Notes: generated by a model not told the origin, from the sequence alone. A stretch of DNA of 63,452 bases, filler included, from Reclinomonas americana ATCC 50394 (GCA_048213135.1; 42 parts of 42 records of this genome joined end to end with filler, not necessarily neighbours in it); one strand, 5' to 3'. Shown: positions 195 through 61,056, counted from the whole stretch's first letter. Numbers and translations: made by a program.

Positions 195-1429
195 CTGATA
201 CACCCGCAGCTCCTCGTACGCCTTGTCGAGCAACTCTTGTGTCTGGCGCAATTTCGCATCGGCGACTTGCAGCGCCTCTTGTTGCGCCACGCGGAGATCT
301 TCAGCCGCCTGCAACCGTTGCGCGGCAGCCTCCTTCTCCTCGCGCAACAACGACTGCACCGAGCGCGCTCGCACACTCTGTTTTTCAACAGAAAAACATG
401 GGCGAGTCAGCAAGAAACACGATCAGAGGGGCAGTGGGATTCAACAAACCTCGGCCATCATCTGCGCATGATTGTCGTCGTGCTCACTCAATTGCCGCAG
501 CAACTTTGTGTTCTGATCCTGCATCTTGGCAAACGCGTCGCTAATGACTTCGATCTCCGCCATCAAACCCTCCGACTCCTCCCTTCGCCCCGCCAGCTCC
601 GCTTCCAGTTCGGCCACGCGACCTTCCAAAAATGCGACACGAACTGTCAACTCTCGCCGCGCTTCGTCGTGGCCACTGCCGTCCAGCACCGGAGTTGAGG
701 GAGCCGGTGACATGACCACATCCATCGAGCCGCTGCCACTCGCACCCATCGAAGATTGTGCCGAGGCAGCTGCCGCCGCTGCTGCAGCGGCCAGAGCCGC
801 CGGACCATGCCGACCCGCTGCCACCTCCACCTTTAGCGCCTCCAACTCGGCCGTGATCAGCGCCAGTTCACGTGTGCGCTCCTTCTCCGCCAATCGGATC
901 TCGTGCAGCTCACGCTTGTCACGCGACGACGACTGGTACACCTCGTTCGAGAGCAGCAGATCTTGAACCTTTTCCGACAACTCCCTGCATTGTGACGATG
1001 CCCCGCCGTGTTAGTCACACCAAGATGAAGTAGCGCAACGGGGAGGAGCGACGTAACTTGTTCTTTTTCCTGAAATCAGCAAGCTGCACGTCCGCAGTTC
1101 GGCTCTGCTCCTTGGCGATATCCACCTCCGACTGGGAACGCATGTACATTTCTGGCGCGCAGGGAACAAGTCAGACTCGACACGCAAAATTCCAACCACA
1201 CAATCCCCTTCCGCACCTCGCTTGCTCAGTTCCTCAGCCTTCAGGGCCTCCAGCTGCTGCTGCCATTCGCGCGCCTTGTCCTTGCTCACCCGCAATTCTA
1301 GTCTCAACCGCTCGAGCTCGGCACGCTGCGATTGCACCATGGCGTCCAGCTCCGTCACACGACCCGACATGTCGCGCCCGCCCTACATCGAAGAACACGT
1401 TGGCGAGAAGAGTCTGGCGAAGGCACGGT
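195..1429 (-). CDS. BRE1: BRE1/RNF20-like E3 ubiquitin ligase, coiled-coil region (partial, 4 exons)
   Basis: EGLMAEIEVISDAFAKMQDQNTKLLRQLSEHDDNHAQMMAE matches the BRE1 coiled coil before the RING. Intron donors are GTGCGG, GTTACGT, GTTTGT and GTGCGA. Confidence 0.75.
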
Positions 1430-1529
1430 NNNNNNNNNNNNNNNNNNNNNNNNNNNNNNNNNNNNNNNNNNNNTTAATTAATTAANNNNNNNNNNNNNNN
1501 NNNNNNNNNNNNNNNNNNNNNNNNNNNNN
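1430..1529. other. Artificial contig linker N44-TTAATTAATTAA-N44 (first of ~41, about every 1.5 kb)
   Basis: The same 100-nt spacer, with stops in all six frames, separates blocks whose length falls steadily from ~1429 to ~1400 nt. Confidence 0.98.
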
Positions 1530-1530
1530 A

Positions 1531-2316
1531 ATCAGCCAGCCCGGTGACGAAGACGCCGTCCCGCACGACCATGTTCCATCGCGACTGGCGACGGTGCTGC
1601 CCGTCTTGCGCGGCGTCGTGCTCACCGCCGTATTCGGACTGACCGCATTGGTTCTGCTGTCGCGGCTTGGCGTCGATATCGGGCCTTTGCTCGCCGGTTT
1701 CGGTATCCTCGGCCTCGCCATTTCTTTCGGCTCGCAGGCGCTGGTGCGCGACATCGTCTCCGGCTTCTTCTTCATGCTGGAGGACGCCTTCCGCGTCGGC
1801 GAATATGTCGATACCGGCCGGTTGAAGGGCACGGTCGAGAAGATCTCGCTGCGCTCGATGCAACTGCGCCATCAGAGCGGGCAGGTCCACACCGTCCCCT
1901 TCGGCCAGGTGCAGTCGCTGACCAATGCCAGCCGCGACTGGGCGACGGTGAAGTTCAACGTCCGGCTCGACCACTCCGCCGATATCGAGAAGGCGCGCAA
2001 GACGATCAAGAAGATCGGGGCGGCGCTGCTGGAGGACCCCGAATACGGGCCGCATTTCATCGCCCAGCTCAAGATGCAGGGCGTCGCCGACATCACCGAT
2101 TCGGCCATCGTGATCCGGCTGAAGTTCACCAGCAAGCCGACCCAGGCCTCGATGCTGCAGCGCGAGGCGCTGAAGCGGGTCTATCGCGGCCTGATCGAGG
2201 CGCAGGTGCCGTTCGCCTCCAATGCGGTCACGGTGAAAGAGGGGGGTGCCAAGAGTGCCGCCGCCGCCATTGCGACCGTGCCGCCGCCGACCCCGCTGGT
2301 GCCGGCGGCGGAGTGA
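1531..2316 (+). CDS. MscS-family mechanosensitive channel, C-terminal part (bacterial, 5' partial)
   Basis: GVDIGPLLAGFGILGLAISFGSQALVRDIVSGFFFMLEDAFRVGEYVD..GTVEKISLRS MscS signature; no introns; high GC3. Confidence 0.93.
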   Translation: MSQPGDEDAVPHDHVPSRLATVLPVLRGVVLTAVFGLTALVLLSRLGVDIGPLLAGFGILGLAISFGSQALVRDIVSGFFFMLEDAFRVGEYVDTGRLKGTVEKISLRSMQLRHQSGQVHTVPFGQVQSLTNASRDWATVKFNVRLDHSADIEKARKTIKKIGAALLEDPEYGPHFIAQLKMQGVADITDSAIVIRLKFTSKPTQASMLQREALKRVYRGLIEAQVPFASNAVTVKEGGAKSAAAAIATVPPPTPLVPAAE

Positions 2317-2324
2317 GGTCGAGC

Positions 2325-2615
2325 ATGCGCAGCGTCGCGCGATCGGGATATGCAGCACTCGTCCTGGCAGCGGGCATGATCGCAGGCGCCGCAATCGCGC
2401 AGGCGCAGTCGGCGGATGAGCTGATCGCCAGCTATCGAGTGCTCAACAGCGCCTGTCGCGGCGGGTCCGGCGACGATCCGCGCACGCAGAAGGCTTGCGC
2501 CGAGCGGGATCGCATCGTCGCGGGCTTGCAGCAGACTGGTTATTGCTATGGGCGCCGCGGCCAGGTCGGCGCGCAGATGAGCTGGCATCGCTGCGGGCCG
2601 GATTCGCTGCGATAG
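2325..2615 (+). CDS. Small secreted four-cysteine hypothetical protein (bacterial)
   Basis: GAGG ribosome-binding site upstream; signal peptide ending AQA; CRGGSGD..C..CYG..WHRC pattern. Confidence 0.7.
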   Translation: MRSVARSGYAALVLAAGMIAGAAIAQAQSADELIASYRVLNSACRGGSGDDPRTQKACAERDRIVAGLQQTGYCYGRRGQVGAQMSWHRCGPDSLR

Positions 2616-2631
2616 GGCGCCGGCGCGCGGT

Positions 2632-58951: not shown

Positions 58952-59437
58952 NNNNNNNNNNNNNNNNNNNNNNNNNNNNNNNNNNNNNNNNNNNNTTAAT
59001 TAATTAANNNNNNNNNNNNNNNNNNNNNNNNNNNNNNNNNNNNNNNNNNNNAGAGAGAGAGAGAGAGAGAGAGAGCGAGAGAATGAGAGCGAGAGAGGCC
59101 ACAAACAATGACTGCATACACCAGCATTCTACACATCGACAAACAGCATCTCTCCTTCTCAGTGCTTGCTCTCGCGTCGAACGCATGAAGAGAGAATACC
59201 AAGCGCGACATGCCCACTCCCTCGATCACTCTCGGTCTCGCCGACCGCACACAGCATCTCTCGTTCTCAGTGCTTGCTCTCGAGCATAACGCATGAAGAG
59301 AGAATACCAAGCGTGACATACACACGCCCTCGCTCACCCTCAGTCTCAACGACCGCACAATTCATCTCCACTCTCAACCTCATTCTTCTCCACGAGTTGC
59401 TCTTCCCTCGCTCTCCCTTCCCCATCACCCCCCTCAC

Positions 59438-60118
59438 CGTAGAACGAGTTGAACGCCAAGGTGAACGCAACCCACGCCAAAATCTCAAACGTGTAGTTCG
59501 GCACCGACACATAATCAAAGAGGAAGCCGCGCGGGATCTTGCGCACGCGGGTGCCGGCCGGTCGCAGATTCTTCAGCATCACGTGGCACACACCGTTGCC
59601 GATCTCGGCCGCCACAAACACCGCCACAAAGAACCACGTCTGCGCCGAGTTGGCCGGCGCCGTGAACAGCGGGTGCGACACCGTGTAGCCAATCAGCGCG
59701 CCAAACAACCAGTAGTACCAGCTGTTGAGGATGAGCTTGATCCACGGCATCGTGGCATTGGAGAAGGCGTGCAGGAACACCGACTCGGCCACACGCTTCG
59801 CAAAGTGGCCAATGAAGCACGCCGCCGCCACCAGCTGCACCAGCGACAGCGCCGGCGCGGTGGCACCGTAGACCAGGTGGCGCACGAATGGCACAAAGGC
59901 AAACAGCGCAAACAGCACCGGCGGTCCAAAGTACTCGACCACAAACACCACGCGCCACGGCACCTGCATCGGCAGGTACTTGAACTGCACCACGTGTCGC
60001 TCGCCGACTGCCAGCGTCTCCGCGAACGGCTTCAGCTTGTCCAGCGTCTTGGGCTTGCTGCCGTCGTCCGGTCGCGGGAAGCTAAAGTACACGCGGGAGG
60101 TGTCGCTGAAGTGCTTGT
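59438..60118 (-). CDS. TECR: Very-long-chain enoyl-CoA reductase (TECR/TSC13), internal exon
   Basis: QVPWRVVFVVEYFGP, HFAKRVAESVFLHAFSNATMP, KIPRGFLFDYVSVPNYTFEILAW. Confidence 0.93.
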
Positions 60119-60300
60119 CTGTGAAAGGAAAAAGGGGGAGAAGGGAGGAAAGGGGGAAGGGAGGAAAGGGGGAAGGGAAGGAAAGGGGAAGGGAGAAGGG
60201 TGAGAAGCGAAGGAATGTTGCAATTTGTGTTCTTGCTGGAGTTCTTCATTCTTGTCCCCACAGGTAAGGGAGTGCGTGTGTGAGAGAGTGAGTGTGTTTT

Positions 60301-60451
60301 GTGTGTGTGTGTGTGTGTGTGAGAGAGAGAGAGAGAGAGAGAGAGAGAGAGAGAGAGAGAGAGAGAGAGAGAGAGAGAGAGAGAGAGAGAGAGAGAGAGA
60401 GAGAGAGAGAGAGAGAGAGAGAGAGAGAGAGAGAGAGAGAGAGAGAGAGAG
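60301..60451. repeat. (GT)n(GA)n microsatellite
   Basis: Compound dinucleotide run at the contig end. Confidence 0.95.
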
Positions 60452-60848
60452 NNNNNNNNNNNNNNNNNNNNNNNNNNNNNNNNNNNNNNNNNNNNTTAAT
60501 TAATTAANNNNNNNNNNNNNNNNNNNNNNNNNNNNNNNNNNNNNNNNNNNNAGAGAGAGAGAGAGAGGAAGAGAGCAAGACGATGAGAAACGGCTGCCGG
60601 GTACATCATTGTCAGCAAAAAGGGACAGTGATTTCAATCACGCGCACCGAGAGAGCGAGAGCCATATACCGTTTTCCTCATCTTGCCCCTTCCTGCACGT
60701 TTCCTTGTCTCCTCATCTTTAATTCTCCCCTGTTTGCTCTCTCACCTCTTCCGTCGTCTCCCCCCTTCCCTCATTCCTTTTCCTTTACCCCCTTCCCCTC
60801 CTTTCCTGTTTCCCCCCTTCCCCTCATGCCTTCCTTTCCCATTGCAGC

Positions 60849-61045
60849 CGACTCGGACGGCGGCGGGGAAGACCGCTCCGACCAAATGCAACTCGACGAC
60901 CCCTCCTGGTCCGCCCCCGCGGAGAACGCACCACCTGTCGACGTCGACCAGCTCATGGACCACTACGGCGACCACATCACCGCCATGATTGACGAGAACG
61001 CCGCGTACGAATCACTTCTGGTGTTGGTGAAGGAGCTGTTGACCA
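60849..61045 (+). CDS. Isolated exon of an unknown protein
   Basis: Coding-like island between a polypyrimidine-CAG acceptor and an A|GTTGCGT donor. Confidence 0.5.
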
Positions 61046-61056
61046 GTTGCGTGCAT

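Follow-up and report, generated by a model that had tools for sequence, protein, structure and literature searches.

A common second class of 5' splice site, GTTG(C/A)GT, in predicted introns of a Reclinomonas americana ATCC 50394 assembly

The DNA analyzed here (the window) is a stretch of 63,452 nucleotides (nt) from the assembly of Reclinomonas americana ATCC 50394 (GCA_048213135.1), and it consists of 42 contigs of 1,400 to 1,429 bases each, ordered by length and joined by linkers of the form N44-TTAATTAATTAA-N44 (e.g., 1430-1529), so that any feature spanning a linker is an artefact. Apart from three contigs of bacterial appearance, described below, the contigs have GC-rich codon usage and short introns in common. 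The best matches in the protein collection searched were 33% for an Rft1 open reading frame and 85% for a PRP8 fragment, and, judged by sequence, these contigs are from a eukaryote without a close relative in that collection. In addition to ordinary donors such as GTGCGT and GTGAGT, they contain a second class of 5' splice site, GTTG(C/A)GT (class 2), which is sequence specific, lies at exon-intron boundaries, is common, and is poor in G at the last exon base (position -1). Class 2 donors were found, among others, in genes for PRP8, a VPS15-like protein, a USP-type hydrolase, and a TPR-like protein (Table 1). Three pairs of contigs have the same ends and are 95.6–98.6% identical over their whole length (9161-10583 with 12207-13626, 13727-15146 with 47021-48427, and 18284-19702 with 31928-33339). 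They probably represent the two alleles of heterozygous regions, in which case heterozygosity would be 1.4–4.4%, located mainly in introns and third codon positions.

Two class 2 junctions were placed by homology; spliced alignment of conserved proteins had been suggested as a check in a preliminary description of this DNA. In the gene for PRP8 domain IV, the donor at 49799(-) is fixed to the residue, since the exon ending in ...FEGNLT aligns with residues 11-31 of human PRP8 (chain 3enb_A) and the next exon, TKPING..., begins at residue 32. Spliced alignment to the stored protein P0056 gave the same intron as its single best solution, without any difference in length. In the VPS15-like gene, the donor at 19487(-) is length-exact: the exon before it reaches residue 501 of human VPS15 (7bl1_CCC), the exon after the next begins at residue 525, and the intervening 23-codon exon fills residues 502-524 exactly, with zero length difference. 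Splicing at the two other in-phase GT sites would make this stretch 6 residues longer or 3 residues shorter. The Pfam VPS15 match stops at the last codon ahead of the 19487 donor, and a 4-nt indel in the allele lies inside the intron. Similarly, in the USP-type gene the Pfam UCH match stops at the last codon ahead of the class 2 donor at 13271(+); against the PDB, the upstream exon of this junction aligns to USP28, and the downstream exon is too short for placement. The ordinary donor at 45273(-) in a DEAH helicase gene was placed in the same way, with continuous residue numbering and one split codon in the PDB helicases 6zwx_A, 3kx2_B, 22tu_DH, and 5lj5_Q.

The preliminary description had named 21 motifs, of which all were found at the positions and strands given, and for the 19 strict ones the -1 bases are as claimed (A in 10, T in 6, C in 2, and G in 1). 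GTTGCGT occurs 21 times in the window against 10.8–14.6 expected and GTTGAGT 15 times against 6.9–10.1 expected; composition alone is weak evidence, and the case rests on context. Context was assessed with a self-trained exon/intron parser that uses 3-periodic Markov coding scores and at the start knows only GT and AG. In the 31 contigs with a clear coding strand under this GT/AG-only parse, 30 occurrences of GTTG[AC]GT are on the sense strand and 1 is on the antisense strand, compared with 17:25 for the control GTTG[AC]G[ACG] (p = 2e-7) and 24:9 for [ACT]TTG[AC]GT (p = 0.013). In a second, equal-score test, a single site was given the median score of ordinary donors, irrespective of its -1 base, and was counted as used if the best parse improved. 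In all contigs, 20/33 sites with the class 2 motif were used, versus 11/300 random GT sites; in the non-duplicate contigs, 14/26 were used (p about 1e-6 against the comparison motifs). The comparison motifs were used far less often: 1/40 for A, C, or G at +3 (GT[ACG]G[AC]GT), 1/13 for GTTG[GT]GT, 1/19 for a changed +6, and 1/24 for a changed +7 (the last two together 2/43). Because single-base variants are scarcely used, the class is specific to GTTG(C/A)GT, with T at +3, G at +4, A or C at +5, G at +6, and T at +7, and in this form the class that had been proposed is upheld as real. The GTTTCGT sites that had also been listed (24779- and 35432+) are not supported as part of it, with 0/6 GTTTCGT sites used, and a broader GTTNNGT class was rejected, with only 1/22 of the other GTTNNGT sites used. 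Among the 19 strict sites, 13 gain score in the equal-score test; those at 12631 and 61046 are chosen by other parses, and those at 1057, 13979, 28080, and 28264 are not chosen by the parser and are frame-consistent on inspection.

Three other approaches were abandoned. A parser based only on codon usage was too weak, a list of all frame-preserving GT..AG pairs was uninformative because GC-rich DNA leaves many frames open, and a loose test for a branch site plus AG downstream was passed by 45% of all GT sites and thus had little power.

The contig pairs provide a further comparison. Across the three pairs, exon mismatches number 7 at first, 3 at second, and 31 at third codon positions, and exons contain 4 indel columns, of which 3 form one in-frame codon; the 960 bases of predicted intron differ by 36 mismatches and 41 indel columns. 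Positions -3 to +9 of class 2 donors are identical between alleles in 5/5 pairs; the intron at 12507, for instance, has 3 allelic differences inside it and 0 at -3 to +9. Indels lie inside the intron at 13271 as well. At 14638, where the donor is chosen even by the single-matrix parse that penalizes the class, the allele has a 4-nt deletion from +10, and at 12631 it has a 9-nt deletion from +12 together with a 12-nt insertion, so donors further downstream are ruled out at these two introns.

The two donor classes separate without being told apart beforehand. A two-component donor mixture begun from a random start resolved into a.G^GTg.GT (about 71%; the caret marks the exon-intron boundary) and c.a^GTTGcGTg.g (about 29%), and the log-likelihood for 102 donors rose from -1361 to -1226. 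A parse with a single, iteratively learned donor matrix, which penalizes the class, nevertheless picks 7 class 2 donors among 93 introns, and the two-component parse picks 19 among 104. The 90 non-duplicate introns predicted by the two-component model comprise 15 class 2 introns, 44 with GTNNGT donors (11 GTGCGT and 9 GTGAGT), and 31 with other donors; in the equal-score test, 14 class 2 donors stand against 53 ordinary GTNNGT donors. The class was therefore rightly described as frequent; its share, put very roughly at a fifth to a quarter, lies nearer to between one-sixth and one-fifth, at the low end of that estimate, and a fair range is from 8%, as a lower bound, to about 20% of introns.

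At their 3' ends class 2 introns are like ordinary introns. In the parse they are all GT...YAG introns (CAG in 11/15 and TAG in 4/15), with a median length of 67 nt versus 75 nt for ordinary introns. CTNAC occurs near the 3' end in 10/15 of them, and in ordinary introns the corresponding figures are 32/44 for the loose form CT[ACG]A[CT] and 21/44 for the strict form. Position +5 is C or A in 15/15 class 2 introns, which thus have no +5G, and the extended consensus is (A/T)^GTTG(C/A)GTG. A search for introner-like shared sequence gave 5 short, weak matches among the 90 introns and none between class 2 introns; without extended shared sequence, class 2 introns are not a repeat family. The U12-type motif [AG]TATCCTT occurs once in all eukaryote-like contigs and resembles no class 2 donor. 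The depletion of -1G that had been claimed is borne out by the equal-score test, with G at -1 in 2/14 class 2 versus 38/53 ordinary donors (p = 1.5e-4). Instead, -1 is A in 8/15 class 2 introns, though only 9.5% of third codon positions are A.

Table 1. Introns discussed in the text. S, single-matrix parse; T, two-component parse; E, equal-score test; gain, score gained in E; I, inspection only. Exon end gives bases -3 to -1.
Feature	Coordinates	Strand	Exon end	Intron start	Length (nt)	Support and remarks
Class 2, PRP8 domain IV gene (contig 32)	49714..49799	-	ACA	GTTGCGTGA...GCGCGTAG, then exon ACC	86	Phase 0
Ordinary GTGAGT, same PRP8 gene	49394..49478	-	TCG	GTGAGTCGG	85	Unique best solution, zero length difference
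Ordinary GTGAGT, same PRP8 gene	48993..49283	-	ATC	GTGAGTGTG	291	Spliced alignment to P0056
Class 2, VPS15-like gene (contig 12)	19407..19487	-	CAC	GTTGCGTCC	81	Phase 0
Allelic copy of 19487 intron (contig 21)	33048..33124	-			77	Contig-pair identity, T
Ordinary register, DEAH helicase gene	45198..45273	-	GAG	GTTAGAAGT	76	+5G
Class 2, USP-type hydrolase gene	12507..12570	+	AGA	GTTGAGTGT	64	T
Class 2, same USP-type gene	12631..12685	+	GGA	GTTGAGTGA	55	T; unused in E
Class 2, same USP-type gene	13271..13337	+	GAT	GTTGCGTGG	67	T, E
Allelic copy of 12507 intron (contig 6)	10220..10283	-				T, E
Allelic copy of 12631 intron (contig 6)	10102..10159	-			58	T, E
Allelic copy of 13271 intron (contig 6)	9447..9514	-			68	E
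Probable class 2 first intron	13979..14047	+	TCT	GTTGCGTGC	69	I; after 22-codon ATG exon; not chosen by parser
Allelic copy of 13979 intron (contig 31)	47268..47335	+				Gain 0.4; -1 is C, not T
Class 2, TPR-like gene	14638..14707	+	GCA	GTTGAGTAG	70	Phase 2; gain 12.0, the largest
Allelic copy of 14638 intron (contig 31)	47924..47989	+			66	T, E
Class 2	4286..4338	+	CTC	GTTGCGTTT	53	S, T; gain 3.9
Class 2	26515..26572	+	CGA	GTTGAGTTG	58	S, T; gain 8.8
Class 2	35316..35391	+	CAG	GTTGCGTTG	76	S, T; gain 4.7; sole previously listed site with -1G
Probable class 2, DEAH helicase gene	44929..44994	-	CCA	GTTGCGTGT	66	S, T; gain 6.5
Class 2	50572..50643	-	GGA	GTTGCGTGC	72	S, T; gain 8.2
Class 2	50414..50482	-	ACT	GTTGCGTGG	69	T; gain 3.2
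Class 2, not previously listed	53687..53753	+	GGT	GTTGCGTGC	67	T; coding strand of contig not clear-cut
Class 2, low confidence	61046..61097	+	CCA	GTTGCGTGC	52	S, T; low-complexity surroundings
Possible class 2, GTTACGT	985..1057	-	CAA	GTTACGTCG	73	CTAAC branch; frame-consistent by inspection; not chosen by parser
Possible class 2	28080..28142	+	GAA	GTTGAGTGC	63	Frame-consistent by inspection; not chosen by parser
Possible class 2	28264..28472	+	AAT	GTTGCGTGG	209	I; parser favors donor 28293
Class 2, weakly supported	51253..51416	-	TGT	GTTGCGTTT	164	Gain 0.4
Class 2 donor, P5-ATPase gene	57385..57449	+	CTT	GTTGCGTGT		Terminal donor, gain 1.0; acceptor beyond contig end

Several observations accompany these introns. 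GTTTGT and GTTCGT are common ordinary donors (14/61 sites used), for example at 17775(-), 26680(+), 35161(+), and 52153(-), so U at +3 is tolerated in the normal register when +5G is present. The sequence ATG^GTTTTGTTT at 18972(-), with its allele at 32613(-), is a chosen donor with -1G that resembles a GTTTGT donor one base longer; it is the sole such case, with 1/4 GTTTTGT sites used. In the DEAH helicase gene, a 395-codon open frame at 44084-45268 (-) crosses predicted stop-free introns of 66, 66, and 75 nt; as these lengths are multiples of three, retention would leave the frame intact. The probable class 2 intron at 44994 is in frame and stop-free, and the reading frame is therefore no proof of it. 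In total, 80 metagenome PRP8 loci were considered as a baseline and set aside, because most of their 74 resolved junctions are artefacts of about 1 kilobase caused by a gap in the reference protein; class 2 introns numbered 0 of only 18 short introns, too few for a baseline. Two of these loci, both from GC-rich environmental eukaryotes, have a PRP8 intron with an ordinary GTGCGT donor close to the class 2 intron of the window, one in phase 2 and 1 nt upstream (L080:72-138) and one in phase 1 and 8 nt upstream (L074:2360-2489). These offsets could mean that an intron slid by one base, or that introns were gained independently at a hotspot.

The three bacterial-looking contigs carry an MscS channel (1530-2958), a long TPR protein with both strands open (4588-6016), and IS66 TnpB with a transposase (7642-9060), and they are probably from contaminant or associated bacteria within the assembly. 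Microsatellites of the types (GA)n, (CA)n, and (AGAC)n are very abundant at contig ends and in introns (e.g., 13575-13606 and 61100-61600) and yield spurious long open reading frames.

What reads the class 2 donors is suggested by their likeness to the ordinary consensus. When A^GTTGCGT is slid by one base, it matches AG^GTGCGT at 7/8 aligned positions. On balance, and with modest confidence, we favor the explanation that class 2 introns are genuine major (U2-type) GT-AG spliceosomal introns whose 5' splice site, A^GUUG(C/A)GU, would be the consensus of this organism (AG^GUG(C/A)GU) recognized at an offset of one base through shifted pairing with U1; the RNA partner and the register are what we infer from the motif. 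The 5' arm of an ordinary U1 small nuclear RNA (snRNA) would pair one nucleotide shifted, with G+1 occupying the place usual for exon base -1, U+2 forming a single mismatch, and the U-G-(C/A)-G-U block at +3 to +7 pairing like +2 to +6 of ordinary donors. The later spliceosome (U6, U5, and Prp8) would then cut at the sole GU available. As a one-base shift of the U1 helix predicts, the -1 profile of class 2 donors is like the -2 profile of ordinary ones, both being poor in G (2/15 versus 4/44). In a duplex model that used the standard U1 5' end as printed in the available part of PMC4856993, which may not be the organism's own U1, the class 2 consensus and 5/14 sites fold fully shifted as the minimum-energy duplex.

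Some results weigh against this explanation. With the same assumed U1, the other 9/14 class 2 sites do not fold in the shifted register, and the modeled shifted duplex is weak (-4.0 kcal/mol, versus -8.9 kcal/mol for the ordinary consensus). An Rfam search of the window gave 0 matches and so no U1, U6, or U5 gene, and the identity of the pairing partner is an assumption. The shifted counterparts of further ordinary donors (GTTTTGT, GTTTCGT, and GTTGTGT) are scarcely used, and T ranks second in frequency at -1, for which a shifted helix offers no explanation. In addition, the parser is weak, as the two-component model misplaces the second PRP8 donor, which is fixed by spliced alignment; the 31/90 introns with odd donors may be parser errors, and all data come from a single 63-kb set of small contigs.

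If the pairing partner were instead a second, variant U1 snRNA whose arm, complementary to AGUUGCGU, pairs perfectly with the class, there would be two U1 species and two donor codes. Such a U1 could differ by one substitution opposite U+2 or by one extra base in its 5' arm. The form with an extra base predicts that -1G is retained, whereas -1G is depleted; the form with a substitution explains the preference for A at -1 and fits the data equally well. The two classes are also discrete, with almost no intermediates in the equal-score test, and, within the part of bioRxiv 10.1101/2022.06.08.495308 available, Entamoeba and a Mastigamoeba candidate are reported to have co-evolved U1 5' arms. However, the same part reports that lineages with GTGCGT-type donors keep a standard U1, and a variant U1, too, is assumed, with no snRNA found in the window by Rfam; we regard a variant U1 as rather unlikely. 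Less probable again is that an ordinary U1 keeps to the normal register and one U at +2/+3 is bulged, G+1 lying opposite C8, in the manner of human bulge +2/+3 sites. The intron-side G(C/A)GU block is placed alike in the shifted and bulged models, the bulged register is, in the available text of PMC4856993, experimentally validated in human cells, and the sole modeled site with -1G (17140) folds bulged. A bulge, however, gains a G-C pair from -1G and predicts that this base is kept or enriched, contrary to the 2/14 versus 38/53 observed, and it leaves the enrichment of A at -1 without explanation.

The class might also be an artefact of boundaries mis-assigned by hand, of a chance motif, or of an extra T introduced into GTG(C/A)GT by homopolymer sequencing error. 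The raw enrichment of the 7-mers is only about 1.5- to 2-fold, frame arguments are weak in GC-rich DNA with long open frames, and an extra intronic T leaves the reading frame undisturbed. Against this stand the two junctions fixed by PRP8 and VPS15, the 30:1 strand bias, and usage far above that of single-base variants. The same motif is present on both alleles in 5/5 pairs, and random sequencing error would not track the -1 base. An artefact is thus already largely refuted and appears very improbable.

Roca and Krainer reportedly described, in 2009, human atypical 5' splice sites that are read by U1 in a +1 shifted register. Class 2 donors are like such sites in that they start with GU-U and lack +5G, the sequence from +3 onward repeats the ordinary sequence from +2 onward, and the cut stays at GU. 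Such registers had been described beforehand as rare in human, and this agrees with the available part of PMC4856993, in which validated non-canonical registers make up 1.5% of 201,541 human 5' splice sites and the bulge +2/+3 register is predicted at 68 of them (54 curated). The human +1 shifted sites are a handful within that 1.5% (PMC4856993, same part), whereas class 2 donors occur at about 15–20% of predicted introns and have their own extended consensus. Class 2 donors share with the human bulge +2/+3 sites (Roca et al. 2012 and Tan et al. 2016, as given in that part of PMC4856993) an extra U between GU and the paired block; the human sites typically retain exon-side pairing, in contrast to the depletion of -1G found here.

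The ordinary class of the window is the same kind of donor as those of Micromonas (AG^GTGCGT; PMC3879977, available part) and of Thecamonas and Mamiellales (C at +4; bioRxiv 10.1101/2022.06.08.495308, part as above), with a CTNAC-type branch. The available parts of these two accounts contain no mention of a shifted GTTGCGT class in Micromonas, Thecamonas, or Mamiellales. Entamoeba has GUUUGU donors with +5G in the normal register, as a single near-universal class with a changed U1 (bioRxiv 10.1101/2022.06.08.495308, same part). The likeness lies in U at +3, and GTTTGT and GTTCGT are ordinary donors here too; the difference is that Entamoeba has one normal-register class with +5G, whereas here there is a separate class without +5G. 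In the literature outside subscription journals and supplements, no organism was found described with GTTG(C/A)GT as a common class.

With a single donor matrix, gene finders would annotate a sixth of the introns wrongly in a genome of this kind. Here, the single-matrix parse recovers only 7 class 2 donors, against 19 among the 104 introns of the two-class model. To our knowledge, only engineered reporters and a few dozen sites in human have shown how the cleavage bond is chosen under out-of-register U1 pairing. If shifted pairing operates at many introns, this organism would supply natural test cases by the hundreds to thousands, and a clear prediction would follow for its U1, U6, and U5 genes and for factors that position the 5' splice site. 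As a more tentative possibility, which we hold to be somewhat doubtful, the lineage may have made the shifted register a constitutive second 5' splice-site code, serving about one-sixth of introns and kept by co-evolved machinery in the form of a second U1 or of altered positioning on the side of U6, U5, and Prp8. If so, nature would here provide a system that routinely uncouples the position of cleavage from U1 pairing.

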